This document shows positions 9,597 through 51,300 of a stretch of 59,925 nucleotides of DNA, in pieces (position 1 is the first letter of the stretch; each line of letters begins with the position of its first letter). The position numbers and the translations under genes were made by a program. Below the pieces are notes generated by a model. The model searched no databases. It was not told the DNA's origin and saw only the letters and a program-made list of their open reading frames with translations. The stretch comes from a virus. Lineage: Duplodnaviria; Caudoviricetes. Location: positions 1 through 59,925 of IMG/VR virus record IMGVR_UViG_3300027983_000017. One strand, written 5' to 3'.

Positions 9597-9702
9597 GTTG
9601 ATGAGATAGTCCGAACTGCAAATATAAAAATACTAAATTGCAGAATCAAACAGAAATGATTTGGTATTTAAGTATAAAAAGTTAAAAAAAAAAAAAAAAA
9701 TC

Positions 9703-16083: not shown

Positions 16084-16990
16084 TTCAGGTATAAAAACTA
16101 TAAAAAGCCTTATTAGTAAAATGTCCGATGTAGTTTTTGTTTCTATTTCTAAACCAGGCCCAAAAAGAAAAGTTATATACTACAAAAATGGTAAAATTAT
16201 AGATAAAAAGTTTTTAGGGGATTGTTTAACTATTAATAACTCTATCATAATCAGGTATGGAAGTGCTTTTCCTATAAAAGGAGAAGGAAATATAGTTTAT
16301 AACGAACCCTCTAACATCATTCTTTCATCCAATAAGATGAAGTCAAGGAAAGAGATGACCGAACTTAAGGTCAGCTGCCCTACTGTTTATGATTTAAAAA
16401 ATAGAATAAGAAAGTTTCCTTTAGTAGTAAGGCCTTTTAAGCACTCTAAAGGAAAAGATTTTACTATACTCAAAAACCCCATAGAATTAGAAGTTTTTAA
16501 AAATAATAATCCTACAGGATATTATTATTCTGAGTTTGTTAAAAAGGAAAAAGAGTTTAGAGTACACTGTGCTCATGGAAAAATCTTACTTATAAAAGAA
16601 AAACCCGAACCCAAAGATGGTAACCCCATATGGAATATAGACGCTAATGGAGAAGCTTTTGTATACATACCTTGGGAGGAGTACAACTTTCCTGGGATGA
16701 GGGATGTTTGTTTACAATCTTTAAAAGCAACCAAGGCTTTAGGTTTAGACTTTGCTGCTATAGATATAATGCTACGAAATAATGTAGCTTACGTACTAGA
16801 GGCAAATACAGCTCCCTCCCTATACACAGCAGAGTACACAGAAGGGCGTTATATAAAATACTTCGAATACCTTTTTAATTTAAGCAAAAATCAGAAATTA
16901 AGCCACTGGGATTACTCTTCTTTTAAGGAGGCTGATTCTTTAGCATGGAAAAATAATCAATTAATTTCAAATAAAAATGTCATCAAATAA
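16034..16990 (+). CDS. ATP-grasp ligase (RimK/YheC-like, phiEco32-type)
   Basis: SSNK, EFRVH, LGLDFAAIDIM and YVLEANTAPSL motifs; the start may be ATG 16055. Confidence 0.88.
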   Translation: MKVKKISMREKYVICTNSGIKTIKSLISKMSDVVFVSISKPGPKRKVIYYKNGKIIDKKFLGDCLTINNSIIIRYGSAFPIKGEGNIVYNEPSNIILSSNKMKSRKEMTELKVSCPTVYDLKNRIRKFPLVVRPFKHSKGKDFTILKNPIELEVFKNNNPTGYYYSEFVKKEKEFRVHCAHGKILLIKEKPEPKDGNPIWNIDANGEAFVYIPWEEYNFPGMRDVCLQSLKATKALGLDFAAIDIMLRNNVAYVLEANTAPSLYTAEYTEGRYIKYFEYLFNLSKNQKLSHWDYSSFKEADSLAWKNNQLISNKNVIK

Positions 16991-18879: not shown

Positions 18880-20493
18880 ATGTGTGGAATTGTTGCCTTT
18901 TCAGGTGAAAAAGAATTTGACCCTAATAAAATAGCAACTTTATTAGCAATAAATCAAACAAGAGGACTAGATAGCTGGGGTCATTGTTCTATAGTACCTT
19001 CTGAAACTAAGGGTTCAGTAGTACACAAAAGTTATAAACAAGTAGGTAAACTAATAGATAGTCTTAATGATTTAAAATTAATACCCTCTAAAGAGTTTAT
19101 AAGTCATGTAAGAGCAAGAACTAAGGGTGTTGTGAGTGTGGATAATGCTCACCCATTTCAGTATAAAGACGAAGGTAACCTTTTGACAGGAGTACATAAT
19201 GGTACTATAGAAAATTGGATTGCTCTTGAAAAACATATGAATGATAAAGTTTTTACAGAAAAACAAAAAAAGTTACACGGTGTAAAAATTAACTTTTCTG
19301 TAGATAGTCAACTTTTATTTTATTCTATATTATGTCAAAATAATTATGAGTTTTTAGAAAAAATAGAAGGTGGCACAGCATTTAGTATGCTTACTAGAGG
19401 GTCTTTAAGGGTATATACTAATGGGGGAAGGACTTTGTTTAGGGGCACTACAGAAGAAGGTATATACTTTTCTTCCATAGAAGAGCCTTTATTGTTTCTT
19501 GGTATGACTGATGTAGAGCCTATAGAGTGGGACTCTGTTTTATCTTATAGTGAAGGAAAGCTTGTAAAAAGTGTTCCTATAGAGAAAAAACCCCTAGTTA
19601 AAGTAACTACTACTGGCCATACAGATTCTGTTTTCTTTAGGGTCTTTAATACAAAAGAAGCTATAAATAAAAAAGAAGATGAAGGTTATGAGTTGCTTCC
19701 CTTTTATAAGTCAAACAGTAACTTAGCTTATTATCCAAAAACAGATTCGTGGGTATGTGGTAGCTTAATACTAAAAGATTTTGAAATTTTTAAAAAGAGT
19801 GAAAAAAATCTTAGTATTATCCCTATGACGAGAGTATCAGATATAAACTTTATAAAAGGTCTTCCTGGTTCAGACCCAGGGATAATTATAACTCCCCTAG
19901 TAATAGATAAAAAAGGAATTTATTTTGACTTCCAAGATGTAGAGTTTAATTTGTTTAAAGTGTATCCTAATAGTTCTGCAAAAGTACTAACTATAGAAAA
20001 AGAAGAGGTAACTTTAAGTACTGGGGTATTAAGGTCTATGACTCTTACTGAGTACTCAAACGGAACAAAAAGGTTTGTACCGAACTCTTTTGTAAGTAAA
20101 GCAGAAGATGTACAATATGCTTGTATATATTTTGATTATAGAATAAAAAAGTTTTTAAAGTGCACAACTTATAGTGAACACTCTTGGGTAGAGGAAGAAG
20201 TGACAAACTTTGAAGATTTATATGGAATATCTACTGAAGAGTATTTAAAAAGGTTTCCAGACACATCGGTAGAATCCTTAAAAGTTGCACCTAAGACTGG
20301 GGCAAATAAGTTAGAGTTTTTATCAGAGTTATGCTGTCTCCTAACAGAGTTAGAGCTGTCAATTATTTTAACTAATTCTGACATAGTTTCAGGTGTTAGT
20401 GTACCAAATATTATAAATATAACTGATTTATCTAAGATGAAAAAAAGGTTAGTAGATATTAATTTAAAACGTAAAATTAAACTAGACTCATGA
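18880..20493 (+). CDS. Class II (Ntn) glutamine amidotransferase with a long C-terminal extension
   Basis: MCGI, RGLDSWG, HVRART.G, NAHPF, HNGTI and VDSQ motifs. Confidence 0.9.
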   Translation: MCGIVAFSGEKEFDPNKIATLLAINQTRGLDSWGHCSIVPSETKGSVVHKSYKQVGKLIDSLNDLKLIPSKEFISHVRARTKGVVSVDNAHPFQYKDEGNLLTGVHNGTIENWIALEKHMNDKVFTEKQKKLHGVKINFSVDSQLLFYSILCQNNYEFLEKIEGGTAFSMLTRGSLRVYTNGGRTLFRGTTEEGIYFSSIEEPLLFLGMTDVEPIEWDSVLSYSEGKLVKSVPIEKKPLVKVTTTGHTDSVFFRVFNTKEAINKKEDEGYELLPFYKSNSNLAYYPKTDSWVCGSLILKDFEIFKKSEKNLSIIPMTRVSDINFIKGLPGSDPGIIITPLVIDKKGIYFDFQDVEFNLFKVYPNSSAKVLTIEKEEVTLSTGVLRSMTLTEYSNGTKRFVPNSFVSKAEDVQYACIYFDYRIKKFLKCTTYSEHSWVEEEVTNFEDLYGISTEEYLKRFPDTSVESLKVAPKTGANKLEFLSELCCLLTELELSIILTNSDIVSGVSVPNIINITDLSKMKKRLVDINLKRKIKLDS

Positions 20494-21923
20494 AAGTAGA
20501 AACAAGGTTTAATGAAAAAACAAAATCAACAGAAATAAAACTTTATGACGGACTTTGGTATGACACAGTTTTTGACAAAAGGATAGTTGGTTTTGGGTTA
20601 GGATTAACTATAAAAAAACCTCCTGTTAAGCCACTTTTAGTAATGACAGAAGACACTAGAGATTCTTTACCTATAGATAGGACTTTTATGTATGTAGGAA
20701 AAACAGGAGAAGTTAAGTATTTCTATAGTATGGTTACAATAGATCATCTACCTAACCACACTATCTACGAGATACATCCTTTACCTATTTTTTACGAAGA
20801 TATTGATGTGTTTTGTGAAAAGTATAACTTAGAAGAGTGTAGGTATAGGGGTGTATTGGTAACTAAGGGAAGTGGTTTATTGCCTAATTCGAATAGGTAC
20901 CTTTCATTAAAAAGGTTAAAAAAAACCCCTGAACCTCTTAATACCTTTCTTTGTACAAATGGGATACCCTATACTTTTGGAGTGGAGTTTGAAACTTCTA
21001 CCGGTACAGTACCTCCTTGGGTGTTGGATTACTACGATATAGGGATATCTTGTGAAAGAGATGGGTCTGTGAGTGGTGGTGAGTATATTACTAATGTATT
21101 ACAAGGGGATGAAGGGTTTTTAGAACTTTATAAAATTTGTAAAGTACTCTCTGAAAGGTGTAATACGAATTCTAGTTGTGGGTTACATGTACATATAGGT
21201 GGTGCTTTATTTAATAAAAACTTTATAGTACTAGCTTATTTGTTTGCCATAAAAATACAAGATGATTTATTTTTATATTTTCCCGAGTCAAGAAGAAATA
21301 ATGAAATGTGTTCAAAACTTCATTCATTTTCTAAAGTAGAAGATCTTATAAAAAGATACGGTTTTCATGAGGGTTCAAAACTTGCATTTGAGTTTTTATT
21401 TGAACACTTTTCTAATGGGAGGAGTATAAGTGGAGAAGTAAACAAATGTAAACCTCATCCAGGTGGTAGGTATACTGATAGATATCAAAGGGGTATAGAA
21501 TTAAAAAACCTTTTTAGATATAAGTGGTTTAATCTTATTCCTTCGACTTTTGACACAAGAGGGTTTGGTAAGGAAAAAGCAAATAAACATAATATAAATA
21601 ACGGGATACCCCACACTTTAGAATTTAGAAACCATCATGCTACTTTAGATTTCATAAGCAGTTCTTATTGGGTTATGATTTGTATGGCGATGACAAATTT
21701 TATAGAGAATAACATGAAAAGTATATTAGAATGTAAGAAACTCTATCTAAAAGAGGTTATTTCAGCTACATACAATGGATCTAAAGCTAGAAATATTTGT
21801 AGTTATCTAGAATCTCAAAAGAATCTATATAGTTTAGAAGGTGTTGAAAATATCGAACCTCTTTTACCAATAGATTATAGGAAGGATCATCAGAAAGGGG
21901 ATGTAATAAAAATGCTATCATAA
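20490..21923 (+). CDS. Putative amidoligase (Amidoligase_2 / COOH-NH2 ligase fold)
   Basis: TFGVEFET, DGSV..GE, SCGLHVHIG and TLEFRNH motifs. Confidence 0.88.
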   Translation: MKVETRFNEKTKSTEIKLYDGLWYDTVFDKRIVGFGLGLTIKKPPVKPLLVMTEDTRDSLPIDRTFMYVGKTGEVKYFYSMVTIDHLPNHTIYEIHPLPIFYEDIDVFCEKYNLEECRYRGVLVTKGSGLLPNSNRYLSLKRLKKTPEPLNTFLCTNGIPYTFGVEFETSTGTVPPWVLDYYDIGISCERDGSVSGGEYITNVLQGDEGFLELYKICKVLSERCNTNSSCGLHVHIGGALFNKNFIVLAYLFAIKIQDDLFLYFPESRRNNEMCSKLHSFSKVEDLIKRYGFHEGSKLAFEFLFEHFSNGRSISGEVNKCKPHPGGRYTDRYQRGIELKNLFRYKWFNLIPSTFDTRGFGKEKANKHNINNGIPHTLEFRNHHATLDFISSSYWVMICMAMTNFIENNMKSILECKKLYLKEVISATYNGSKARNICSYLESQKNLYSLEGVENIEPLLPIDYRKDHQKGDVIKMLS

Positions 21924-33394: not shown

Positions 33395-36300
33395 TTAACA
33401 TTCTTTTATCATACGTTCCACTTCTTTATCTATACTCAAACCATAACTAGTAAGGAAGTACCCATCCCCCTTAGATAATGTTTTTGGATCAAGTGACACT
33501 TTAAAACTTTTAAGCACATCAGATATTTCTTTCTTATGGTACTTAAGCTGTAATTTTTTGTCTGGTTCTAATATATAAATACTATCTAGCACTCTCCCAT
33601 CAGGTAGCATTCCAGGGTATGAAAATACAGCCACATTTCTAACAGAAGACTTGGTAGTAAGACTAATAGGCTCTTTATAAGCACTTATTTTTTTGGGGTT
33701 TTGACTAGGAAAAGCTTTATCTAAAAAGTTTTTTATAAGGTATTTTCTTTCAGTACGACCCATATTATTAAACTTAACAAGTGCTTCATTTAATATTCTC
33801 TGGTGGCTCTCGGGGGGTATTAAACTACTATAAGTAAAAGGGCTTGTAGTGTCCCCAGACTGATAATAAGACGCCTTTATTATATCTTTTGCTAAATCAG
33901 GGTTTAAAGACTCTATTTCAGAAAAAGCAGAAATAAGCATATTTTCTTCATATACAGTTCTTTTATTATTATACATAATAATATTATCTTGATCTCCTAT
34001 CCTGGTATCCCTGCTTTTAATTATAGGTACTAATTGTGTTATAGCATGATTACCGTAAAGCGGGTCTCTTTGATTTTTTTTAATATTACTTAATCTTACA
34101 GCCAAAGAGTTATCACCAAAAAATAACCTATGTAAATCCCTATTTATATTTATAGTCCCATTAGTAACAGAACCTATGGTATTTACAAGGTAGTTGGTAA
34201 ACTCAGATCTTAATAGTATTAAGAATTTGTCTCTATCTACAGCATGTTGTTCTGCCATTTTAATAAACTCTGAGTGTATGTCATAAGAATCTAAAGTAAA
34301 TAAGTCTACAAACAAAGACATTGCTCTTTCTATTACTTCTTTATAAGGCTTATAATAACCCCTCATAGACCTAGAATAACCCCTTATTTTTTTATCTCCA
34401 CTCAACCTAGCTATAGTATTCAATCTATTAGAAATAATAGTAGATATATTAGAGACACCATTTGTATCTAAACTAGAAGAGGTTACCACTTCTGACAGTC
34501 TACGAGAATCTTCTAAGTACACAATAAATTGGTCAAACGCTTTTATTTGATTTTCCTGAGATGGGTTTTTTATTTCAGATTCTAAATCTGCATTAGTTAA
34601 AGGTGTATTTAAGTATTCTTTTGTTTTTAATTCTTTATTAGAATACATATCAGGTAAGTTTACTGACACTAAGGCCTCTACTTTTTGCAATCCTGGTAAA
34701 TACTCTTTAGCTGCAAACTCCAAACCTTTTATTTTACCATTATAGTAACTTAAAAGCTTATAAGGATCACCCTTATATTTTTTTATTAGGTCTTTTTGTA
34801 TATCCCAGTCTTTTTTATCCGACTCTTTAAAAATAGAATTAGTATTTCTTATTTCTTGTACATAAGATTTTATAATAGGTTGATTCATAAAACTAATAGC
34901 CCATTCTACACTGACTCCAGATCTTATAAGATAAAACATGACATTAGAAACCTCTATATAACCATTCATATCAAATATATAAGGGTCTTTGGATACGTCT
35001 ACATAAGCAGTTAGGAACTCAGATAACACCTCACTTATAAGCCTCCCATCTTTATTTTTTCTTTGTGAAAAATCTACATAGCCGTCTTTATTATTATGCT
35101 CTGTAAATATATCAGCTTCTATTTTTATACCATAAAGTTGTGATATAGTATTATGTGTGATTTGAAGAGCAGTTACACCCACACCTTTCTTACCAGAAAG
35201 AAATGATTCAAAAGCTGTCATATTAGCTTTTAAAGTAAAAAGGTCCGTATAAGAATTTTCAACCCTTTTTCCTTTAGAAGACTCTTCTAACTTTCTTATT
35301 CTTTGGGTATTGTTGTATAAACTTCCTTTATCTAGTACGGGGTAGAGAAGTTGAGACGCATTATCGGGGTGTAGTAGTAACTTTTTTTCTATTTTTAGTT
35401 TTTTGTTAAACATCCCTTCAACACCTTGTGTGTCTTCTACTAGCTTTCCATCAACTACTTTAAAAGAGGGCATGTAGATATTAAGCTTATCAATGTCAAA
35501 GTCAGATCCTGCCTTAACAGTAATTGCGCTAGGTACTATTGTAATATCTCCACCCACTGGCGATAAGAACTTTTTTATAGTAAATACTTCAGCAGATGAT
35601 AAAGATTGTGTAGGTATACGGAAACCCACCCAAGTAAATAAGTCTTTATACTTAGGGTCGCTCAGATACTTTTCATTTATAATCTCTACACCTTTTGTTA
35701 TGTCACCTTTACCAAGTTTTTCTGCAATATTATAAAGGTTTTTAGGTAAAGCAGTTATAACCTCCATAGGAACAGTCTCAACTTCATTTATTTTATAAAA
35801 AGCCAGGAAAGAGTTAAATTTAGTATTACGTACTGTATCTTTAGTTTCAAAAAAAGAGCTTGATACCTGTACATGCCCCGACCCTGATCTTTTCTTGCTT
35901 ATAATCTTTTTATTGTAAAGGGCGGATACCATATCATATATCTTCTTTTTTGACTGTAAATGATCTAATTTACCAGGCCTAATAGAGTCTAGCTCTGAAA
36001 GTATATTATTATTAGCACCCCTTTTAGTTATATTCTCTATAAGGTAGTTTTTAAGAGCTGTAACGTCTTTTACGGACACTTCTCCATCTACTCCTATCTT
36101 GATACCCATTGAAGACTCCACACTCTCTAAAAGGGTGTTTGTTATATCTGTATTAAGTTTTATGTAATCTTCATGTAAAGCTTTTAATTCCTCATTTTGA
36201 AAAATTCCATCGTCTGAAATATTAGATAAGGCAATCTTATTTATTTGTGTACCCTCAGTAATATCTGTTTTTACTTTAGGTGCTATATCTAACTGAATGC

Positions 36301-39300
36301 CAAAATACTTATAATTTACAAGTTGTTCAGGAGCACCTTCAAAAGTAATAAAGCCATCCCCCTCTGTGTATAAAGAGTGTAGATTACCTCCTTCGTTAAT
36401 AAGGGCCCCAAATTTAGTAGCACTGCCTGTTTGTAAGATACCTATTTTTTTAGATGTCATATAACTAGATATTGTTTCTAATTTAGTATCCTTTATAACA
36501 CTAGGTACTAGTGGTAGTAAAGAGTGTTTAAAAGATACAGGATTATACCTACTTATATCATTAACATCAGGCCCCACATATTGTGTTTTTAAAGGGGGAA
36601 AATAAGATAATGACTCCAGAGAAATTCCCTGACCAGAAATTTCTTTTTGGTACAAAGCTTCTAATTTATCACTCCAAGACTTAGATCTTAAGTGGGTCTC
36701 TCTGTATTCATCTAATGTAATCCATCCCTGTGCATTAGCTTCATTAGCTTTTTGATATTCTTCTTTAATAGCAGATACTTGAGCAGAAGTGTGGGTCTTA
36801 CTAAAAAGTTTTACTATATCCTCAAGATCTTCTTCAGCGAGAGATGTTATAATATCTTTTATAGTTATAGTTTTTATTATATCTCTATCAGTATCTTTTT
36901 TATCAAGCCTTTTATAATTTTTGTTTAAGTGGTGTTCAAATTCTACATCACCTACCCTACTAATCTTTTTTGTAGCATTGTACAAAGACATCCTTTTAAA
37001 GAAATCTGTTGTATTTTTGTAGTAAGCAGGGTGACCTGTAAAAACTTTAGTAGTTTCTATATTAAACCCTATGTAATTATGAATAAACTTGTCCAGTTCT
37101 TCATCTTTGTAACTTTTAATATCCTCACCCAGAATTTGTTTTAAATAATTTTTTTGCGAGTCGAAAAATACTTTTAAAGCACCATCTATAAGTTCTTTCT
37201 TACTTTCTATGACTCTCTCTGCTATATTAAAGTCTTCATGCTCTATTATATCTTGTATTTGTAGCTTATTACCTAAATCATTTATTTTAAGAATATCTTG
37301 AAAGAACCCCATGTTAATCATGTTACTTTCTACGTATTGTGTATTAGACCCCTTTCTATCCCTAACAAAGTTTATTTCGTCCACAAGATAACCCCTAAAA
37401 GCTTTATAAGCCTCCTCAGTAGTGTTATAAAGCAACTCCCCATTGTTTATAAGGAAACCACTCTCAACCTTTCTGTCAGAAGCTCTGTTGAAGCTGTATA
37501 TCCCCTTTAAAGTATCTATTACCATCTTTTTAGCCCTATCTTTAGGTGACATTTTAGAAAGTTCTACAGAAACTAAAGGAGATTTAGAGTTTTTTACACC
37601 CTCATGAAAAAAGTGGGTTATTTTTTTACCTTCTAAAAGCCTCTTTTTTATTACAGAGTTTTTAGAGTACACATCATTAAATTGAGGAAAGGTATCTAGA
37701 TTAGAGCTATTCCAACTATTAGTCAGTAGAGAAAAATAAGTATTAAGCCCTATGTCATAGACGCTTGTCCCATCTACATTAAAATGTTGTAGCTCTACAG
37801 CCTCTTTTGACTTTTCTACCACCTTGGATACAAGATAATCTATCTGTCCACCTACAGAGCCCTTAGACCTGCTAAAAAGGCTGCCCATATCTGCTTTATC
37901 CGAATATTCTAGTATATTACTTACTATTTCCCTGATATTAGTATCGGGCTTACCCGCCATACTATAAACCTCTTTATCTGAATACATAGATGGGGTTTTA
38001 GTATAAATACCAAATTGATTTAATATTCTATCAAACACGTGCCAAGACTCTACATGTGGGTTATTAAGACTTTTAGCTAGATTTTCTATTTCAGCCCATG
38101 CAGAATTAGGTAGAGTCCTATTTTTAGTTTCGGGGTCAACAGTACCAGAAATAATATTCATGAGACTACTTTCCCACTCTTTTCTTATTTTAGCACTAAG
38201 TTTGTTCCTATTGGCATCTATTACTCGGTACTCCCCATCTTCTACTAATCCTAATAGAAAAGATGTTTTTGTCTGAGAAAAGTGTTGTAAAGTTTCAGTA
38301 ATTGCATTTTGACCTAATTTTTCTATTTTTTCTACAAATTCTGATAACTCAGGTCTAGAGTCAGAAAAAGTCAATAGCTTACTTTTAAGCTCAGCCCAAG
38401 AATAGCTACTATGAGCCAAATTCATCATATAGTCATGAGTAGAGCCTGGGTTTACAGACTGTTCCAAACCATAGTTAGGGCTACTACCAGTTTCTCTTAA
38501 AGAAGCTATTACCATTTTTACAAGATGGGGCATGTGATCTTTAGTAGAAAAAGTGTAAGCCTCTTTTAAAAATGCATAATCATTAGTACTTCTTTCTACT
38601 TCACTTATAGATTCTTCATCCATAGCAGCTTCCACCCCATAGTTGTACTTCATGTACTGGGTGTGAGCCTCCACTACTTTATCCCAATTATTAAAAATAG
38701 TATAATAATTTTTAACTTCGTCAATTCCCTCTGGGTTCTCTTCTTCTGAGTATTTTTCTTCTAAAGCAATACCCATATCGTTTTCCATATGATACCTTAC
38801 AGCATCATACACATCTTTAGGATCAGTATTCTCATCAAAGAAAAAGCCCTCTTTAAATTGAAGCATGTTATTAAGAAAATAAGAAGTGATACCCCTCATA
38901 ATCTCATTCTCGTGCTCTGTAGAGAGTTTTATTGTTTCCCCACCTTCTTCAAACTGTAACCCGTAGACCTTAGACTGTTTTTGTTTGTGTCTATCCTCTA
39001 TATCAGCTGTTGTTTCTGGAGAGTTTAATGAATTATTTTTGAAAGTATTTGTTGTAAAATTAACCCAATCTACTAAATCTTTATTTCTTCCATATTTTAA
39101 CTTTTCTGTAAATGCTGATAACCAATGAGATATTTTTATTTCTGTCCCGTCAGATAATTTTGTTTTTATAGGTTGATATTTAACTTCTTCTTTATTATAA
39201 AATAAATCAACACTAGCAGCATTTAAATCTTTTGGTACATTTTGTAACCCTTCATTATAAACTTCTCTATTTTCTGTAACTTTATTGGATCTAACACTAA

Positions 39301-42300
39301 CATCATAGTATCTTCTATAATTAGAAACTACTTTTCCTTTAGAATCAACAACATCATAACTTGCTATGTATTTATTTTCACCAAATTCATCAGGTTTAAA
39401 AAAAGTCATGTTGGTAACTTTATAACCTTTTGGCGGGACAATATATGTTTTAGTGTAGTATGTAGGTGAATCAAATTCTCTTACAATTTGAGAACCTTTA
39501 AACTCAGTTAGTAGTTTTACAGAAGGGTCTCCTGTATAGTCAAATGGAACTGCCCAGTCTATATCATGCATTAAATGCCCTAGTTTTCTGTAAACACTTC
39601 CTTGTTCCGCAACAGCTACACTACCCACTAGAGTTAATCCTTCACTACTTAAAAATTTAATTATATTTTCACCATGTTTAGATTCAGATAAAGCTTTTTC
39701 TAAAGTAACTCTTTCTTTGCCTTGTAGATTATTATCTCCTAATATTATTTCTTTATTATTTACTAAAACTTGAGAGATTATAGCATCTGTAATTTCTTTT
39801 ACATTTTTTGCAGAATTAAATAAATCTTTAAACCATTGTAAAAATTTATTAATAAATTTATGCAACTCAGAATTATTATTTTTAGCATCTAATAAAGATT
39901 CTTGTAAAAATTTTTCTAAAATAGAATTTTTAATTTTATTATATTCAGCAATATATTTTACCCACTCATCCATAGGTATTCTATTTCCTGCTTTTAAGTA
40001 ATCATATATTTTCTCAATTTCTGGTTGCTTTTTAATATTTGTTTTAAACTCTGCTGTATCTTCTATTAAATCTTGTAAATGATTAAAGTTAATGTTAGGA
40101 CTTGCTTGTAATAATTGAACAAGTAATTTAGAAGAACTATTTATAAAATCTTGATTTTCATTTGCAGGATTTATATAAGCAATTTTTCTTAAAATATCAA
40201 CAGAAGAATCTCCTTCTTTAAATGTTATTCCAAAATTATTAAAAAAAGTTATTAGTTTTTTATTAAAATCTTGGTCAGTAGGTATCTTACTTTCTATGAA
40301 AGATTGAATTTGTTCATTAGTATAATCAGCAAAAGCTGGTTCTATAAATTTTAAATCTTCTATGTTTTTATTTTGTTCTGGAGTTAATTGTTCACCAACA
40401 AACTTTTTAAATTCAGCGATTGTTTTTGGAGAGGTTAATATTGTTATTTGAGAAGGTTCAAATACTACTTTTTGAATTGTAATATAATCAACTATACCTG
40501 TTTTATTGTATAATTCTATATCAGAATTAACATATATAGAATCATATCCTAAATTTTTTAAATGTTTACCTATTTTTTCGTAGGCATCAACAGTCCATTT
40601 ATAATCACTTGCCCAATTAGTATCTTTATCTTCTTTCGTAAGAATATTTAATTTATCAACCCAACTTTCGTTTTCCCATTCTTTAGCTTGTATTATAAAA
40701 GGGTTTTTAATATTTAGTAAATTAGGGGAAACACTTCCTTTTTTGTTAGGAGCAGATTTCATTATAAAAGAATCTGTTTCGTTATCTCCTGTTAATTTGC
40801 TTTTAATACTATCATAGTCTTTTTGAGCGTATTGACTTGCTACTGTGATATAACTATTGGAAAAGAAAAAACCTAAAATTGAATTAGGATTTCTATATTC
40901 ATAATCTTCTTTATTTTTTAATTTTACAAAATCATCAGTATTTGTTTTTCCTCCATGATAATTTGGACTTTTAACTTTACTATCAGGTATCTTACTTTCT
41001 ATAAAATCCTGTATTTGCTCATTAGTATAAGGAGCATAAGCTGGTTCTATTGATTTTAAATCATCTATGTTTTTATTTTGTTCTGATGTTAATACATTTT
41101 TATTTCCTAAATCTTGTCTAGTTAAAAAAGCATCAGTTAATATATTAGTAAGTTGCTGTTTATCTAATTTAGAAAGATTATTAAATTTATCTAATATCCA
41201 TTTAACAAAATTATTCCACCAATTTAATGCTTCTCCTTTTTGTAAAACAACTTGTTCCCCTATACTTTGTACCAATGCTTCTTCACTACCCCATTTTTTA
41301 ATAGCTTCTTGTACTATTGGAGAATTTCTATACCAAGATATATAATGATGTGCATATTCATGAGGTAAAGTATCAGCTTTTTGATTTACAGCATCTATTA
41401 AAACAGTCATTGCTTTAATATTAGCTTGACCTATAATTCTATTAGCTTCATTTCTTTGTAACAAAATATTAGACAATTCTCTTGTTTGATTAATACCTAC
41501 TTCATACCAACCATTACCATATTCATCAGTAATTCTAATAGGACTATATCCTTGTTTCTTTAATACATTAAATACAGTTTCTTCATAGAATTTAGCAATA
41601 CTTGATATTTTTAACTTACCTGATTTAGCATCTGCTATTTCTGTTTCTAGTTGATATATTTCTATTGTATTATCAACACCTTTAGTTACGTTAATTTCAT
41701 AACTATTAAAATCTGCTTCTTTTCCTGCTAAATCAGCTTCTTCTTTTGTATTAAACTTTTTTGTTTCATTTCCACTTGGAGACCAATCATTTCCCATGTC
41801 AGTGGCAAAGTATTTTAATTGGTTTTTATTTAGTTCATTAATTCTTGCTTCTTTATTATCTATAAACCCTTGTACAGTTTGAAGTCCTTCTACTTTAGCT
41901 GCTGTATCTCCTACAGGAAATAATACTTTTTCATATCCTTTCTTAGCACTATCTTGTATGATAGATTTAACAAAGAATGTTACCCAATTATTGTCTTTGT
42001 TTAGTAATTGAAGGAATTGGTTTTCTTTACTAAAGGTTGAACCTTTATTTAGTTCTTTAGATAGTAATATAGCTTCTTCTTTTGTATTAAATTCTTTATA
42101 TAATTTTCTATCTCCTATGCCAGGTTCATTAACTTGCCATTTATTATTTTTATTAGATAAAGTATAAATAAGACTAGAACCGTTTATTAAATTATCTTTA
42201 TCTCTACCTTTCTGAAATAAATCACTTTGTATTTCTTGTATTTCTACAGCACCAGTTTTTTTATTATACCAGACTCTAGCCCAACCTATACCATTATGTG

Positions 42301-45300
42301 TAGCAAATTGAGCATGCCCTCTAATAGAAGGTGTAATAGCAGGAGTTTTAAATTCTAATTCATGGTATTCCCAATCAGGATTTCCCTCATATTTACTTTT
42401 ACCTTCAGTACTTCCTGGAGCTGATAGGTTAGAGTAATGTTGAGTATTATTTATACCGCCTTCTATTTCTTCAATATCTTTTATACCTTGTTCTGTTAAA
42501 AAAGGATTACCTTCATCATCATAATCATAATCTGGTTCAAAAGGTTCAGGTTCAAAGTTACCATCACCTAAATCTACCATTTTATAATCTTTTCCTTTTT
42601 CTTTAGCAGTATTAATTTCTACTGTATAACTATAGTTAGATAATAAATTAGTTACTATCTGTTCTCTATTTCTAGTATTAAAGGACTTAATTAATTCTTG
42701 TTGTTGTTTTGGTACATTAAGTTCAGTTAATATCTTATCAATATTCCAATTATTCTTATCTCCTTTTCTAAATACTTCATCAGCTTTAGTAGATAATAAT
42801 ATTTCAGTAGCTTTTAATCTATATTGTACTTGATTATTAAATTCTTCTTGATTAAATACATTATCTCCTTGTTCCCATATAGGATTATTAGAATACTCTA
42901 ATTTAATTTCAGGGTATAATTGTTGTAGTTTAGTTTTTATTTTTTCATTTAGTTCTATAAATTTTAAATCATCTATATTTTTAGATTGTTCTAGAGTTAA
43001 AGGTTCTTGTGATGACACATTCATTTTTTGTAACAACGCATCAGCTTCATCTTCAGAAATAGTATCTATGACTGGAGTTATAGGCAAAGGATTATTGTAT
43101 TCTTGAGAAGAAACCACATAATTTTTAAAGTTTTTATTTTTAGTATCTGTAACTACATCAAATATATAATCTAAAGTATTATTATTTAATTGATTAGACA
43201 TAAAAATTTCTGAAGCTGTCTGCATAACACCTATAAAGTTACTGTAAGGTAAAGCTTTATTAAATCCATATTTACTGTAACCTATCCCATTTTGATATAT
43301 AGACATTAAAGGTAACATCTCAAAAGCTTTGCTTATTTTTTTATTCTCAACAGGATCAATAACTTTTTTTACAGTTTCATCTGCAAGATCTAATAAATTC
43401 TGATGATAAATCTCAGCTATTTGAGAATCTTTTAAAGCACTGACATCATTTAATGAAAGTACTTCTTGTCCTGTGGCAATATTAGGTTTAGTAAACTGAC
43501 TAATAATATCATATTTAGTAGTGAGAATAGGATAGTCTTCAATTATATTTAATATTAAATCAGTAAAAGATTGACCTTTAAGATCCATAATAGCTTTTCT
43601 ATTAAAAGAATTAATCAATGCTTTTTTATTTAAGTAAGCTTCATAAGCTTGTTTTTCATCTTTAATTAAATCATTTAATCTTTTAAAATCTTTACTATCT
43701 TTAATAGACACTAGAGAATACATGCTCCTCTGATGTTCTCTTTCAAAAACATATTTAAAATATGTAGACTCATTAGGAAATAACTCTTCAATATTCATAA
43801 AACCTCTTAATCCATCACTAGCATAATTTTCAGAAGTTGTATTAGATCTATCATATAGTTTTTTTGCATATTGTTTTTTAAGTTTAACTTCATCAACATA
43901 CAGTTTACCATCAATGACTTCAGCTCCAGTTTTTATACCAGCTTTAATAACTACATCCATACCTTTATATTCTTTAGGCATGCTTATAAGATTACCTTTT
44001 TCATCTACAAAATTGGTCATGTAGTTTTGAAAAATATAATTTGGTATAGCATTTTTAAAAGCTGTTATAAAGTTTCTTGCACCATCCTGAGTTGATCCAA
44101 AAGATTTTGTAATTTTAACACTATTGTTTTTAAATTTTTTAACAATATAATTAGTAACAATATCATTGTTTCTTAAAGGAAATACAGGTATAATCAAATC
44201 ACTTATTAGTTTATTATCAAAAAATGTTCCCAAGATTGAGTCTTGAAGCTTTTCAATAGTTCCTTCCTCTAACGTAGACAAAGCTTTACCTTCATCTATG
44301 GTTAAGTTTCTTCTGATTAACTCTTGTAATGTTTTAGAAGTTTTAGTATCAGGATTAGCCATAAACTTTAATGCAGTAAAACCTCTTGTTGATTTTTCTA
44401 ATTCTAAAAAATGTAAAAACATTGCAATAGCATGTTTTTCATATGCTGGATTTTTAGGATCTTCAACTAATCGCGTCATTAAAGCAATATCAAAATTACC
44501 AGCATTATTTAATATACCAGATCGAGATGTAGCTTTTTGTACAGTATTATAATATTTTTTATTAGACGTTGGATAAAAACTTTCTTTTTCTCCAACATAT
44601 TTAATAAGTGTATTTCTACCAGCTTGATATTTTACAAAACTGTTTTCAAAATCATCTTCTACAAAACCCGTAATTTTAGCATAAGTACTTTTAAGTGTTC
44701 TTTGTTGTTTAGTATATTCTCTAACTAAAGGATTAGATACAAAAAGAATAGCTTCTTTCTTAGGTACACCTGCTTTAAGTAAAAATAAAAGTATTGGTAA
44801 AGTTTCATAATTACCTTGAATAAAGAATATCCAAGCATCTTTTTCAACATCTACAGCACCATTTAACATTTGAGAAAATAATTCTCCAATGCTATCTAAA
44901 CCATCAACACTATAAATATTAGATAAAGATATTCTACCATCTTTAGTTTTATTATGTCGTAGTAACAATCTTGTTAAAAATTCTTTTTTACCCTCTACAT
45001 TTCTTCCTAAAGATGCATTATACTTTAAATTTTTATATTTAGCTGGTAATGAAACACCGATTGAATTCATCATAGGGTGTAAAGAATTTTCTATTGCAAT
45101 CATACCTAACACTTTCTTACCAACCATGTTTACTTCATGTTTATGTAAGTTATAAGATACTTCTAAAGTTCTTGTAGGACTTATTATCTTTTTTCCATTT
45201 TTATCTAATCTAACTGCTTCATTATGCATATTACTAAATCTGTCATAATCAGTTACATATTCTGCAAGTTTATCAGCTATATCATTTTTTAATAAATAAG

Positions 45301-48300
45301 TATCATTAGGTTTTACCAAAGATGCATAGTTATCACTCAAAGCAAGTATTTCAGATATAGTAGTTATTAATTCATTTTCTAAGGCTGCTTTTTGATTTTT
45401 AATTATACTAGAAGCAACACTGGATTTATCAGCAGCTCTAACTTTATCTAAAACTTGATCATTAGTTAATGAACTTCTAACAAATCTACCATAAGCATCA
45501 ATAGCAGGCATAAAAGTTGTTAATTTATCACCATCAAAATCTGTTCCTGATTTAGCTACTATTTCAGTAGGAGGAATAATTATAGGTCCTGCTGAAGGAT
45601 CTAAAAAAGCATAAACTTCCATAAATTCCATAGAATTTATACCTTGTACAGGAATTCTTACAGCAGATAAAGTAACAGATTTTCTATTATTATTTAAATT
45701 TAACCAATCATCATTTTTTATCATTTCATTTAAACGGACTATTGTCTCTACAGGTTTACCATCCAAGTGTTTTGTTTTTAATAAGTTAACAAAATCTCCT
45801 TGTAAAGCAATAGCAACTTTCATTGCATTAGTTGTACCATCTGCGTTTCTACGATAAAAAGGTAAATTATTAGTTCCTAAAAATTGTTGTACTTCAGCCT
45901 CAGTTCCTTTTTTAAGATTTGAATCCCATATACCATTTGACATTGCACTAGATACTTGAACTAATGCTTCACCTTTAACTTTTTGTTTAATGAATCTTTT
46001 TTCAACTAAAGCTACTAGAATAGTTTCAATTTCATCAGCTAATAAATGAATAGATAAATCTGTTTTAAGTGAGTTGTCTCTATTAAGACCAACTAAATGT
46101 ATTAAATGCTCAGGAATATCTTTTCTTTCTAATTCTTTTTGAACCACATCTAAAAAATCATGTAGATTACCTGTATATTTATTATTTGTTTTATCATAAG
46201 TATAGTGTATCTCGTGTAATAATTCTAATTTTAATAATTCACTATAATTTTCTACAGCTTCTTCATATCTTTTTACAGCTTTTTCATTATCAGAATTAAT
46301 AATTTTACCCTCACTATACATATTACTTAAAATAAGTTTTCTTAACTGTGTTGAGAATACAGTTTTATTTTTATACTTACTTGGCACATTAGTAACATTT
46401 TTTAAATTTTCAAGATAAATTGTATTTTTTGTAAATGCTATATCTTTTTTTAATATTTTTTCATCAGATCCTTTTTCATAAACTATATCAGCTGAACCAT
46501 TTGAAGTTACACTACCTACTTTAGATCCCGTTTGAAAAGTAATATACTGTATATTTCCTATCATCATTTGTTTATGTAAAGATTCAAGATCTGAACCTGC
46601 AATTACTGAAGGAATTAAAGGAGCTAATACAAATTTATGCATTGCATTTACAGGTAAACCCGTATTTGCTAAGTGACCAAAGTTTTGTAATTTATATACT
46701 GGAAACAGCTCTATAGTATCAGATATTGTAATCTCTTCTCCATTTTTAATTTTTTGAAATAAACTTTCTTGATCATTAGACCAAGCATCTTCAAGATATC
46801 TTAGATTTCTATAAGCATCAAAAGTTATAAAACCTTGACCATCAGCTTCTTCAATATTTTTATATTTACTTATTTCAATAGCAACTCTTCTGTCTATTTC
46901 AGCTTTTGCATTAGGTATTTTATATTTTTCGTATTGCTTAGTATATGCCTCTCTTAAGCCAGCTTCTATTTGTTCAAGATATACAGACGTTCTTTTAACA
47001 TCTTGTACAACAGCTGTATTAAAAGTTCCATTATAAATTATAGGAGTTAAACCTTCTTTTTTAGCATATGAAGAACTTGCTAAGAAACTGTTTACAAATT
47101 TTCTAGCAGCAATGTCGGTTCTAAAAGCAGGGCCACCGGATGTAGCACCTGGGTTTCTTTTATGTAATTCTTCTACAGCATGATTATATTGAGAAATGTC
47201 TCCGTAAAACAAAATAGCCATTTCAAAATTATGTATCCAAGAATTATATGTATAAGCTTCAATTAATTTATTTTTCACATTATCCTCAGAAACACCAGCT
47301 TTCACCATTGCATTAGTAAGTTCTTTATCAACAAAAGTAACTTCATCTGAATCATTAATCTTTGTTTGTTGATCAAAATAAGATTTAACATTTCTTTTTA
47401 CAATGTTGAGTAAACCTGTAGTATCAGCATTTAAAAATTCTTTTAAATTAAAAGTTTTATTGTCAGCTAAAGCTTTATCAATACCTTTATATATAGCATT
47501 TTTACTAGCCGTAGTTAATACATTATCAAATGCAGTAAACACTTCTCCTGCCATAAGCCCTCCACCAATATCTCTATTGTAACCTATATAATTTTTATAT
47601 ATATTTTTATTTTGTTTAAACATATATATTCTTTCAGCTTCAGCTTCCATATAAGGTAGCATGTGTGCTTTAAAAGCATAATCTGATGCCGTACCATCAG
47701 CAAACATATTTAAGTCAACCCATAGATTCTTATCACTACCTTCTTTTCCAGGTAATCCTATGACACCTCCTTCAATCCTTGCACCAAAAGAAGCTGATTT
47801 AGATGCGTGTCTCATAAATTCTTGAATGCCATCTTTTAACATGGTATTCATTTCTTGAAGCATTTTACTATTAACATCTAAATTAGTTGTATTTACACCA
47901 GTACCATTCATTATTTGAGTACCAGAATTCATAAACAAGAGCAAAGATTTATTATTTCTTCTAGTCTGTTTTGCAGAGTTTAAATCAAATAAAGATCTAA
48001 TTGTAGCTAATCTTTTAGTATAAGGATTAGTTGTAGGATCCATATAGGACATGTATTGAAATTCATCTGTAGTCCATAGATCTGAAAGTACTTTAGCATT
48101 GTTTAAAGCAAATGTTATTTTACTAATTGTATTGTTTTCAATATGCTCAGAAACTAAATTTCTTTCTGCATTTAAAACCATTGTATTAGAACTGTCTAAA
48201 CCATAACGGGCTTGCAATTCAGCAATAGCCTTAATTTGTTTTTTCTGATTAATGTTTTCTAAACCCTGTATTTTAGAAACTTTGCTAGACATTAAAGTTT

Positions 48301-51300
48301 CTAAAGGTTCTGTTTTAAACTTGACTATTAAAGCTTTAGCATTACTAGAAGCAAAAGGTTTATTTTCTAAATCACTTAATTTTTTTATAATTGTAAATAT
48401 ATAAGGAAGACCAAACTGTTCAATAGTATCTGTATTCTTTTTGAGTGTGTTTTTAATTATACTTAAATCATCTAAATGAATACCTATAGCTCTAGCAAAA
48501 TTAAATGATTTTTCTATATCTAACTTTCCGTCAATACCAAAATCATTAACAATCTTTTGAATATTTAAAGTTGGTATGTTTTCTCTGCCAACTCTATCAA
48601 CATAAGGATTTGTAATACTAGAACTAAATTTGTTTTTAAAATTATTAATAATATTAAGAGTTTCACTAGAAGCTTCCGTAACAGAAGATGTATAATCATA
48701 CACACGTACATAACTATCATCTTCAAACATAGAAGATCTAGTAATAAATTTATCTACGGATTCTCCGTAAGTATTTATTTCTTTAGCCTGTGTTTTAAAA
48801 ACACTAAGCTGAATATAAGGAACTCTTGACTTACTAAAAGCTTGCCAAAGCGATGTGATAGCTTGAAATTCATAATGATTATTAGTAGTAGTTTCCGGAT
48901 TAGCTAATTTATTTTCTACTAATTGCTTAAATTGAACATTTGATAAACTTTCTTTTACTAAAGCATCATACATTTTTTGAGGATCTTGCATTCCTGCTAT
49001 TGCTCTAACAGTACTATTCCAAGTTGTTCTAAAATCTGCAAGTTTCTTAAAACCTAAATTATTATAAACATAATCAATTTCTTTAGTTTTTTTATTAATT
49101 GATCCTTGATGTAAACTTTTAAGAATAAATAAAGTTTCTTTACCAGCAAGCTGTATTAAAGTTTTACTTCCCTCTTTTTTATCTCCATATCTTTCACTAT
49201 TTTCTATATTCTGAGGATCAAACAAGTTACCTTCTTCATCTAATTCTAAAGCTGTATATTTTTGTTTTATTAAATCAAATGAGCTATTATCAACATGATA
49301 TTTAATTAAACCAGTATCTGTATCACCATAATTATCTACACCAGCTTGAAGAATTCTGATTCTATTTTCTAATATTTCTTTTTTAAAAGCATTGATTTCA
49401 ATATCTTCTGTATTATCTAAAGCTTCTTTATAACTAGTTAATTTTTCATCTAACTTTACTTTAATCAGTTTATATAAAGGCTCTCTATTTCTTGAATCAA
49501 GTAATAAACTTAAAGTTACTGATTTTGATTTTTTAATCTTAGTTTGTTCATCACTAATCTCAGAAATAATAGAATCCATACTATCTTTAAGTAAATTGGA
49601 ATCTTGTCTATTTAAAACCTGCTCTGTTTTAGTTCCCGTTTTAACAATACCGCTGTTTCTATATAATAAATCAAACATGACATTATCAACAGAAGGTAGA
49701 TAATTATTTAAATTAGTTCCTAGATATAAATTATCAAATAAATCTTTAACTTTTTTAATATCAGTCACATCAGTCACACTTCCTTTTCCAAAAAGCTCTC
49801 TTAAAAAATTAAGTATTTTTCTAAATAAGCTATTTCTTTTAGGTGATTCTTTTTGTGTTCTTCCAGTTCTAGCATATTCTCTAAAACTTTCCGCTAAATG
49901 TTCTTCAATTGTAAAAAAATCTGCTTTTGAACCTAATTTCTTTTGTACTTCTTTATATAAAGCTTTTTTATCAGCTCTACTTAAATACAATTGAGAAAAA
50001 GCATGCCAAGCTTCATGATACACATCCACCATAGATCCTTTAGCAGCTAAGTCAATCATACCTAAGTTGCCGTTTAAAGTAGCTCCTGAAACTATAAATC
50101 TAGCATAAGCATCAGAATTTACAATATTAGCAACTTCTCTAAAACCAACATGTTTATTTAATAATGAGTTAGCCCACCACTTTTTAGCATTTGAAACTTG
50201 TTCTTCTGTTACATCTGAAGGTAAGTCAGCATTTCTAAAAAAGAATACGTCAGCAGCTCCCTTATCTTCAGGTTTTGCTTCACCTTTAGCATCTATAACA
50301 TTATTAATCTCAACTTCAATTTCTTCAACAGACTTTTGAATAACAGGTTGTTTTGCTATATCAGATGGTTTATTAAAATCTTCAATTTCGCTTTCTCTTA
50401 CATAACCTAAAAGTTTGTTACCGCTTCTAACTTCAACTACATCTATGAATTTTTTACCTTTAACTTCAATTTCAGGAATTAAAATTAAAGTTACTCCTTT
50501 TACTATATCTGCATTAGTAACTATTCCCGCATCAATATTTCCACTTTTAACATCAACTCTGTTATAAAAATCAATAACCATACCATCAGATGTAGTTATA
50601 TTCCATCTACTTACAGCACCAAAAGGTTTTGATATAGTTCCTATTATTTCAGTACCTGTTTTAAGAATTGAAACTACTTTTTCTTTAATTTGTTTAACTC
50701 CAAGAATTGGTTCTACATCTGCAGAATCTGTTAATGTATCAAATAAATCATCTTTGATATAAATGTCTGTATTTTCCTTAGCTTTTGCTAATTGTGCTGT
50801 AAACTCATTAGGTAAAGCAAACTCTATATTATTATTAAAAGTTCTCGTATTTTTAGTTAAATCAATACTTACTGTTGTGTTAGGTAAAGTTTTTAAAAAT
50901 TCAGTATAACTAGAGTAATCTTCATTAAGTTTATTAGCACCTAAATCATAATCCAAAAATTGATTGTCATTTAATGCTTTTGCATTATATGTCATTTTAG
51001 CTCCAAAGTAATCACCTTTTACACCACTAGCTTCCATCAAAGAGTTATAGATAATTTCAGATGATGCATCAATATCTAAATTTACAACTATAAAAATTGA
51101 CAATCTTTCTTTATAAGTAGTTGGTGAATAACTGTATATTAATTTATCAGTATTAGGTAAATATTTAAGTCTGTGTTTTCTTGTTGCTTGAGAAGCATTG
51201 TTAGCTAAAAATTGAGTAACAAAATTATATTTTTTTAAATTTGATAAATTTTTATTGGTAAGCGCAGCAGCAATTTTTCTTGCTACATCAGCCGTAAGAT

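Follow-up and report, generated by a model that had tools for sequence, protein, structure and literature searches.

crAss-like phages rank with the most abundant of all known phages and, to our knowledge, the roles of their giant virion proteins beyond early transcription are largely open. The subject of this analysis is a protein of 6381 amino acids (aa) encoded by a single open reading frame (ORF; P0001, nucleotides (nt) 33395..52540, minus strand, N-terminus MKVTC) in a phage sequence of 59,925 nt, the IMG/VR record IMGVR_UViG_3300027983_000017, whose estimated completeness is 51%; this whole stretch of DNA is hereafter called the window. Between two RNA polymerase (RNAP) modules the protein carries three different blocks, each preceded by a copy of the same short linker (R), and an earlier, sequence-only reading had taken these repeats either for joints at which injected anti-host domains are swapped in and out or for processing sites. 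The locus is considered here to be, more probably than not, a polyvalent-protein-type array of three enzyme cassettes within a crAss-like giant RNAP protein, the cassettes being exchanged at junction peptides.

In the main text of Iyer, Burroughs, Anand, de Souza and Aravind (2017, PMC5512222), N4-like virion RNAPs fused to MPTase and ADP-ribosyltransferase (ART) domains are described as polyvalent proteins, ART, kinase, GNAT and Pol-beta nucleotidyltransferase (NTase) domains are given as their four protein-modifying classes, and cassette-like recombinational variability is raised for one kinase locus. Similarly, the protein of the window is a giant phage protein in which unrelated enzymatic domains are strung together with an RNAP of the virion kind, and it has the ART-PolyVal domain itself, an NTase, a probably GNAT-type domain and HExxH peptidase-like segments. 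The hallmark of the class, a very large phage protein with several unrelated enzymatic domains, is found here in the form of two RNAP modules, the ART, the NTase fold and the GNAT-like fold; regarding the signature domains, ART-PolyVal is present (PF18760), whereas the MPTase is suggested only by conserved HExxH motifs. On the other hand, the polymerase in the window is of the two-barrel crAss type and not of the T7-like N4 type, with two modules per chain, and its NTase is MenT/LnuA-like with a helical N-domain, whereas the NTase presented in the main text of PMC5512222 is a minimal one of Firmicute elements, fused to ArdC-N. The same main text holds no mention of 'crAssphage', 'DPBB' or 'linker' and seemingly no description of repeated junction peptides, the supplements lying outside the search. 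The array is the polyvalent cargo theme, here on a crAss-type polymerase with lineage-specific junction peptides.

Within the crAss-like phages, gp65, gp66 and gp67 of phi14:2 are virion proteins and are fused as a polyprotein in some members, according to the available passages of the preprint of Drobysheva et al. (10.1101/2020.03.07.982082; Yutin et al. 2018 cited there), and the crAss001 atlas (PMC10172136, available passages) puts polymerase proteins among the ejected cargo. The window protein resembles the gp66 type of RNAP by a DFDxD motif and by tblastn homology that includes phi14:2, and its gene adjoins other giant genes on the strand opposite to the replication genes. It also resembles the gp65-gp66-gp67 polyprotein, for which a huge fusion is known from the same preprint passages, by a zincin-like motif in its N-terminal part. 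It differs by having two paralogous modules, module 1 with the variant DFDGD, and by its ART/NTase/GNAT-like insert, which those passages do not mention.

Literature searches on crAss-like polyvalent, ART-bearing or polyprotein RNAPs returned no description of such an array, within an incomplete coverage from which supplements were excluded. In polymorphic toxins such as CdiA and Rhs, a conserved pre-toxin junction motif stands before a variable toxin domain. The locus is like these systems in that a short conserved peptide begins interchangeable enzymatic domains, R preceding at least 9 different downstream contexts; it is unlike them in that no immunity genes or orphan cassettes were seen, in that the cassettes are internal and not C-terminal, and in that delivery would be by phage ejection. 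The likeness is one of function in this single respect, and no homology is claimed.

Linker copies at the module edges of the giant protein

The order of the modules along the protein is RNAP module 1, R1, block 1, R2 with an extension, the ART (block 2), a tail peptide, R3 with an extension, a helical domain plus NTase (block 3) and RNAP module 2. As the sequence-only reading had it, the linker core LT.EQ.KNI.DLK.IE occurs three times, each time before a different block, at L3181 (R1, core only), L3817 (R2) and L4052 (R3), the last two copies being extended. All of these elements are on the minus strand. R1 (LTLEQSKNIDDLKFIE, aa 3181-3197, 42950..43000) stands directly before block 1 (aa 3198-3814, 41099..42949); R2 with its extension (LTSEQNKNIDDLKSIEPAYAPYTNEQIQDFIESKIP, aa 3817-3852, 40985..41092) forms the leader of the ART module, whose domain (aa 3861-4032, 40445..40960) is closed by the tail peptide SPKTIAEFKKFVGEQ (aa 4037-4051, 40388..40432); R3 with its extension (LTPEQNKNIEDLKFIEPAFADYTNEQIQSFIESKIP, aa 4052-4087, 40280..40387) stands directly before block 3 (aa 4090-4498, 39047..40273). 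The motifs noted earlier for the three blocks were also found in place, namely IQEIQSDLFQ at aa 3434 and LPHEYAHH at 3725 in block 1, YHGG at 3861, GFFFS at 3890 and LNIKNP at 3942 in block 2, and LVGSVA at 4304 and HDIDW at 4325 in block 3.

At the DNA level, R3 and R2 (40280-40388 and 40985-41093) are 87% identical over 109 nt, and, with the 55-nt core of R3 as reference (40339-40393), the R1 copy (42952-43006) is 87% and the R2 copy (41044-41098) 84% identical. A 30-nt core pattern allowing up to 3 mismatches gave 3 matches in the window versus 0 in 100 dinucleotide-preserving shuffles, and the threefold repeat is thus confirmed as real and beyond chance. Every copy is placed at a module edge that homology defines independently. 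As block 3 is followed by no copy, a repeat stands to the left of every block, but not all three blocks have one on either side; the description of the array as repeat-bounded holds in this restricted sense. Promoter and terminator scans of 38900-43200 gave nothing above shuffles and no sign of internal transcription units at the repeats.

Architecture and breakpoints in relatives

The presence and absence of the blocks was compared in relatives, where the blocks proved modular and shuffled, with homology breakpoints at the repeats, as the swapping idea had predicted. The architecture is not invariant, since the blocks lie before or after RNAP, in either order, or in separate proteins. Among 270 homologues, RNAP precedes block 3 in P0013 and P0026 and follows it in P0070, P0099 and P0143; block 1 precedes block 3 in P0010 and P0079 and follows it in P0003 and P0039. 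L002b has the ART followed by block 1, L003a has block 1 before RNAP and L001 has block 1 before a module-1-like RNAP. In a set of 79 giant relatives (3509-7520 aa), coverage of aa 3100-4600 nowhere exceeds 58%; here block 1 lies after RNAP in 8 proteins and before it in 10, and one protein has the order RNAP, block 1, ART. Downstream of block 1, P0297 and P0294 carry an ART with the usual leader (ITPQQKQQALQLYSQYLDTIFP), and P0290, P0291 and P0293 end at that point.

Regarding the breakpoints, block 1 is homologous to L001-L003 between aa 3196 and aa 3814-3816, from linker to linker, and the homology of block 3 begins at about aa 4088-4096 in most of ten relatives (aa 4068 in P0005) and ends at about aa 4498. 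In P0002, a block 3 that is 79% identical lies inside an otherwise unrelated protein of 1740 aa. In P0272, the closest relative, identity to the window reaches 78-82% in just two stretches, aa 3178-3232 and aa 3700-3873, and in the tail and R, the former stretch being R1 with the start of block 1 and the latter the end of block 1, the R2-extension and 10 residues of the ART. Upstream of R1, P0272 has a P-loop kinase in place of RNAP module 1, and after the extension it has a different, shorter ART. Of block 1, it retains no more than the initial ~50 residues and the end with HExxH; the core in between is replaced, and block 1 is therefore itself composite.

The linker and the tail in other phages

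By exact-pattern scans, R was also detected in two more IMG/VR contigs and in four distinct metagenome contigs. With a degenerate R pattern, 14 stretches of IMG/VR were matched, the match being real only in G001, G002 and G006 (the last a complete 122-kb genome); the other matches, in coiled-coil-like or short frames, were set aside as chance. A protein search added the R-bearing P0272-P0277. Judged from these searches, only one small clade of phages, from fresh water and ice, has the linker.

The surroundings of R differ from one phage to another. The order is MAC leader, R-extension, ART, tail, R-extension' and another domain with HEILGH in G001; R-extension, short ART, tail, R and a module-2-like RNAP in G002; leader, R-extension, ART and a HEFSH domain in G006; leader, R-extension, non-ART domain and tail in L012; and leader, R-extension, ART and RNAP in P0275, and in L013 an R-extension lies near the C-terminus. 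P0272 has an NTase-like domain, R, the P-loop kinase, R, a block-1-like segment, tail, R-extension and ART; by its sequence it is a second three-copy linker-bounded array of other content and order, and it gives the strongest support for the cassette-array idea. Overall, the R-extension leader precedes an ART also in G001, G002, G006 and P0272-P0276, and the tail follows an ART also in G001, G002, P0272, P0273 and P0274 and a non-ART domain in L012.

What lies downstream of R could be read in 17 contexts, 9 of them an ART and 8 something else (block 1, the NTase, the P-loop kinase, the block-1-like segment, an RNAP N-region, two unknown domains and a short C-terminal end). The extension of R aligns with the ordinary leader helix of ART-PolyVal domains (L002b, P0297, P0294). 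Moreover, the variants of R track the downstream domain: EQSKNI is found before block 1 in both the window and P0272, and LKSIEPAYA.YTNEQIQ.FIESKIPDSKVK before the ART in both. Since R is mostly an ART leader and its variants follow the downstream domain, it appears to be the leading edge of a movable cassette and not a neutral joint. The proposal that the repeats act as swap joints accordingly stands in part: domains do shuffle with breakpoints at the repeats, but the repeat is mainly an ART leader with domain-specific variants. The window copies resemble one another (42-46 of 51 nt identical) no more than they resemble those of other phages (36-46 of 51 nt); from this and from the variants that track the downstream domain, the copies are read as old, kept by selection on the peptide and moving with the cassettes.

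In more distant relatives, "empty" junction units were observed, in which an ART leader (ITPQQKQQ.LQLYSQYL) is fused directly to a tail (G..DIEGFK.FV) with no ART between. They lie at the C-terminus of P0006, after block 3 in P0034 and P0017, and before block 1 in L001a (the L001 ORF 8705-10780). The leader and the tail GSKQDIEGFKEFV are fused in these four, whereas L002b has the ART between them, so that, by their sequence, the leader-tail units are clean cases of ART presence and absence at junction peptides. The tail and leader motifs are enriched, with 38 and 18 occurrences respectively versus 0 in shuffles.

Nature of the three blocks

Block 2 had been likened to the ADP-ribosyltransferases of phage polyvalent proteins, and this assignment is borne out by a match to PF18760 with an E-value of 6.9e-9 and 37.0 bits (cut-off 31.2) over profile positions 10-130 of 140; by this profile, block 2 is an ART-PolyVal ADP-ribosyltransferase domain. 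The active site of ART-PolyVal has the configuration H-Y-D (PMC5512222, main text). In an alignment of four sequences (window, G001, G002 and L002b), His 3862 is invariant, and the strand-2 Tyr position is Phe in the window (GFFFS) and in G001 (GFFFT) and Tyr in L002b and G002.

Block 3, for which a nucleotidyltransferase-like motif had been proposed, consists of a helical N-domain and an NTase domain (about aa 4282-4498, 39047-39697, minus strand). Its AlphaFold model has a mean predicted local distance difference test (pLDDT) of 83.1, above 90 over most of residues 190-400, and is composed of the helical N-domain and an alpha/beta domain. In a VIA search with aa 4282-4500, the 16 top rows were all nucleotidyltransferases (Z 10.7-8.2), led by MenT1 (Z 10.7, root mean square deviation (rmsd) 3.1 Å over 138 residues), TM1012 (10.4), LnuA (10.2) and MenT3/TglT (9.9). 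In 42 sequences, residues G4306, S4307, H4325, D4326, D4328 and D4445 (query numbering G221, S222, H240, D241, D243 and D360) show a conservation of at least 90%. The near-invariant GS..HDxD..D pattern together with the MenT1 fold match upholds the proposal, and block 3 is, as modelled, a helical domain plus a MenT/LnuA-like nucleotidyltransferase. It shares with the small NTases of the MenT/AbiEii and LnuA kind (PDB 8an5, 6y5u, 4fo1, 2fcl) the fold (Z 10.7-9.9, rmsd 3.1-3.4 Å, 132-149 residues) and the conserved GS, DxD and downstream D, and differs from them by a sequence identity of only 12-16%, by the helical N-domain of ~190 aa and by being embedded in giant phage proteins instead of forming a toxin-antitoxin pair. 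Foldseek against the PDB with the block 3 model returned nothing at E<=0.001. For the blocks, NCBIfam and PADLOC yielded nothing but sub-threshold noise. Since no curated NTase model in Pfam, NCBIfam, PADLOC or PHROGs, at the thresholds applied, and no PDB sequence profile was matched, block 3 is classed as having an NTase fold and not as a member of a named family. Its homologues number 154 representative proteins at E<=0.001, mostly proteins of 1000-6000 aa in which it may take any position; a pattern scan of IMG/VR for close relatives of block 3 gave none.

Block 1 starts with the segment LYPEIKL..WEQGDNVFNQE, followed by a GNAT-like core (about aa 3233-3693) and by a HEYAH segment whose conserved HExxH lies at aa 3727-3731 (41348-41362). 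It is 47-54% identical to L001-L003 over aa 3196-3816, and its family comprises 667 proteins with E<=0.001 among candidates of 1086-3100 aa; in GenBank phages only 1 record matched, covering only residues 504-619. The invariant residues of the core are H214, R227, E241, Q243, S244, D245, K338 and E356 of the block, including ExQSD. The predicted structure has a mean pLDDT of 64.4, the HExxH part 34-61. In a wide VIA search with this model (Z 8.9-7.3), 33 of 50 rows were titled acetyl/acyl-transferase or GNAT, and several of the remaining ones are presumably GNAT folds as well; the alignments cover 110-160 residues, spread over residues 31-514 of this model of mean pLDDT 64.4. Foldseek against the PDB gave E-values of 0.15 or higher for the block 1 model, and a PDB sequence-profile search with the block 1 alignment gave no meaningful match. 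The conserved core is, as modelled, probably GNAT-like. In the HExxH of block 1, the three residues are kept in 20 (H), 25 (E) and 24 (H) of 28 sequences, with conserved Glu residues downstream. The zincin-like character given to block 1 by the sequence-only reading is supported only in part: most relatives conserve the HEYAH motif, but no zincin model was matched, the structure there is of low confidence and the core looks GNAT-like instead.

Two smaller observations were made on block 1. It contains a short internal repeat, KEFNTKEEAILLSKELN and KKFNTKEEADLAGKEAD (41717-41761 and 42053-42097, 78% DNA identity over 45 nt), each copy forming a small insert in the GNAT-like core at a place with a sub-threshold DUF2188 match. 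In L001 (record G003), block 1 is split into two ORFs by a 261-aa ORF with the GIY-YIG-type motif GIYQIRNKVNGKSYIGSS (L001 10771-11556), the second half beginning with its own MAC leader. By its sequence, this looks like gene splitting by a homing endonuclease; the split was rejected as a natural module edge, being caused by the inserted GIY-YIG-type ORF.

RNA polymerase modules

Module 1 lies in the N-terminal part of the protein (aa 1-3180, 43001..52540, minus strand), with its DFDGD motif at 45527-45541 (aa 2334-2338), and module 2 occupies aa 4499-6381 (33398..39046, minus strand), with DFDID at aa 5680-5684 (35489-35503). The two modules are paralogous, with 24% identity over 825 aa (E 9e-39). 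By tblastn, crAss-like phage RNAP genes were matched in 90 records by module 2 and annotated crAss-like RNAP genes in 16 records by module 1; no Pfam or PHROG family matched module 1 or the N-terminal part. Each module matches the single RNAP gene of crAss-like phages such as crAss002, cr118_1 and phi14:2, and since both modules match the RNAP genes of known crAss-like phages, the phage of the window is taken to be crAss-like. The relatives G001, G003 (a complete 155-kb genome) and G005 have one RNAP match each, and none of the 79 giant relatives has two RNAP modules in one chain. According to the available passages of the preprint 10.1101/2020.03.07.982082, the fourth position of DFDxD is taken by Ile or Val in every crAss-like RNAP; DFDID of module 2 has such a residue there, whereas DFDGD of module 1 has Gly.

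Metagenome contigs across the array

Three freshwater metagenome runs (X1-X3) contain 95-96% of the sampled words of 38900-43200, and their contigs match the region exactly yet break at the repeats. The depth at R is 160-470 versus 30-60 in the flanks, and 7-12 variant contigs are found at R2. In an alternative in-frame junction, present in the three runs at a depth of 30-40, only 4 codons separate the R core from block 3, which is entered at codon 4090; the contig with the reference junction has a depth of 14-22. From the raised R depth, the variant contigs and the alternative junction, it follows that many R-bearing junctions coexist in these samples. Over 39186-42887, the contigs of runs X1-X3 come in pieces of 250-620 nt, and the neighbouring sequence is covered by a single 37-kb contig; as the contigs are fragmented across the array, it appears to be a hotspot of strain-level variation in these samples. 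Two candidate joints were set aside: that from 40392 to 41104 in run X4 (side of 34 nt), which a relative with an R3-like R2 would fit equally well, and those from 39027 to 40970 or 40976, whose sides are only 22-25 nt with unknown letters between.

Proposed mechanism and alternative explanations

According to the reading of the locus as an array of exchangeable cassettes, each cassette would begin with a short leader helix (R, either bare or extended) and some would also have a tail (..EFKKFV..). Such cassettes would have changed place and order among phage cargo proteins, or been replaced or lost, the breakpoints falling at the junction peptides, and their exchange would be aided by homologous recombination across 20-39-nt identical tracts of the conserved leaders, recombination within the linker being plausible from its sequence. 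By analogy with known crAss-like virion polymerases, the giant protein is presumably packaged in the virion and ejected with the DNA. In the host, the three enzymes would modify host proteins or RNAs for takeover or counter-defence, the effectors being possibly released by the HExxH peptidase-like segments; cleavage at the linker is plausible by analogy.

Several results weigh against this reading. No recombination event within R was observed, and breakpoints at domain edges are also expected from selection for foldable proteins. The linker is present in 0 of the 79 giant relatives, and a junction tail comes after block 1 in just 5 of 53 cases and after block 3 in just 3 of 101, so that most shuffling of blocks 1 and 3 would take place without this linker; the idea of repeated linkers as a general trait of block-3 proteins was dropped, only 1 of 149 homologues having a short near-identical internal repeat, unrelated to block edges. 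R variants that travel with the downstream domain fit a cassette leader better than a shared joint. Exact R tracts between phages reach 39, 34 and 31 nt versus ~10-13 nt in neighbouring cargo, which in itself favours the reading, but the DNA conservation of the core is inflated in appearance since the R loci were found with R-derived DNA patterns. The public contigs are short and break at R, and the paths across R2 and from the tail to R3 are not bridged. Regarding the enzymes, the GNAT call for block 1 comes from a model of pLDDT 64 with middling Z, no peptidase family model matched its HExxH part (Pfam at E<=0.1, NCBIfam and PADLOC only sub-threshold), and the activity of the ART is uncertain because Phe replaces the strand-2 Tyr of its relatives.

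The alternative that deserves most attention, though considered rather unlikely, is that R has no role of its own: R with its extension would be a clade-specific N-terminal helix of the ART, pieces of which were copied along, and the breakpoints would reflect those domain-edge junctions that survived. It would account for the position of the R-extension before an ART in 9 of the 17 readable contexts, for the alignment of the extension with the leaders of L002b, P0297 and P0294 (the ART leader of other phages being ITPQQKQQA.QLYSQYL..IFP), for the R variants that follow the downstream domain and for the wide shuffling of blocks 1 and 3 without R. It fits poorly with the 8 non-ART contexts that R or the R-extension also precedes and with the truncated R copies that persist at the junctions of P0272; in addition, the core is conserved at the protein level across phages whose cargo is less than 40% identical, from which selection on the R peptide itself would follow. 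A peptide under selection might alternatively be a processing site, at which a peptidase (the HExxH segment of block 1, the N-terminal HEAWH segment or the prohead protease being candidates) cuts the polyprotein and frees the RNAP modules and the effectors in the capsid or after ejection. This explanation, held to be unlikely, is in line with the conservation of R between domains and after N-terminal leader domains of ~30-140 aa, and with the HExxH segments that accompany the arrays in the window, G001, G006, P0002 and P0005. Autoproteolytic release is also proposed for polyvalent proteins in the main text of PMC5512222, and cleavage of the fused crAss-like polyprotein in the available passages of 10.1101/2020.03.07.982082. 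On the other hand, since block 3 is not followed by a copy of R, RNAP module 2 would remain joined to the NTase; the N4 virion RNAP, although it has a peptidase domain, enters the virion uncleaved (PMC5512222, main text); and the zincin assignment is unconfirmed, given the lack of a family model match and the low-confidence structure. 

Both functions may be united in a further and more doubtful proposal, in which the R leader and the EFKxFV tail (17-39 aa) form a dedicated junction system, a phage counterpart of the CdiA/Rhs pre-toxin motifs, offering co-infecting phages identical DNA tracts for the swap of in-frame cassettes (ART, NTase, GNAT-like, kinase) and, after ejection, sites at which the HExxH peptidase frees the effectors and both polymerases; the cargo proteins would thus have a 'polymorphic effector' architecture. 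Finally, in a strain-rich metagenome an assembler could have joined cassettes of different genes or phages in frame through near-identical R copies. The depth at R, 5-9 times that of the flanks, the 7-12 variant contigs, the alternative junctions at similar depth and the breaks at R in the contigs of three runs, with 40388-40444 and 41000-41056 unbridged among the pieces shown, would all agree with such an artefact. However, the exact runs of 16-22 nt shared by the window copies are shorter than usual assembly words, and the unique segments are similar in depth within each of three runs (24-38, 44-65 and 40-55). Exact contigs span block 1 to R2, the extension to the ART and the R3-extension to block 3, and the 37-kb contig runs from block 3 into RNAP module 2. 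The adjacency of R-extension, ART, tail and R is also found in the independent G001 and G002, and that of block 1, R-extension and ART in P0272. With the frame open over 6381 codons as well, an assembly artefact is judged very improbable.

If the array of exchangeable cassettes is the correct reading, it suggests a polymerase protein of the freshwater branch that doubles as the carrier of a changeable set of host-modifying enzymes. The use of an ejected polymerase as effector carrier would then be convergent, because N4-like phages parallel it with an unrelated polymerase. For the questions of how such arrays are rebuilt and whether they are cleaved, the conserved junction peptides offer handles, as do the empty units of leader and tail and the variant junctions in the same lake samples. 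Furthermore, two large unnamed families of phage cargo domains, that of the MenT-like NTase (154 representative proteins) and that of block 1 (>660), would merit biochemical study.

Genome setting and N-terminal features

The window is divided into two halves by strand. The plus-strand half holds genes for replication and nucleotide metabolism (DNA polymerase, thymidylate synthase, ribonucleotide reductase, DnaB-like helicase and primase), and the giant ORFs of the minus-strand half measure 1298, 6381, 1866 and at least 597 aa. None of five pieces of the 6381-aa protein had a match in PHROGs. The N-terminal part of this protein has a second HExxH, HEAWH (aa 842-846, 50003-50017), upstream of RNAP module 1; no family model matched this segment, and an N-terminal region homologous to it precedes RNAP in several relatives.

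A Cys at position 2-5 (MxC, MxxC or MxxxC) was seen in 176 of 257 Met-starting homologous giant proteins, versus an overall Cys frequency of only 0.07% in the same protein set. This N-terminal signature is found in the window protein (start at nt 52526-52540), in the P0002-P0271 set and in ORFs of L001, L002, L006, L011, L012 and L028. In the replication-side half, PHROG matches at 9661-10467, 16034-16990 and 18880-21923 were glutamine amidotransferase-like, S6-glutaminyl-transferase-like (ATP-grasp type), aminotransferase-like and amidoligase-like, and these glutamine amidotransferase, ATP-grasp, aminotransferase and amidoligase genes may form a nucleotide or DNA modification cluster.

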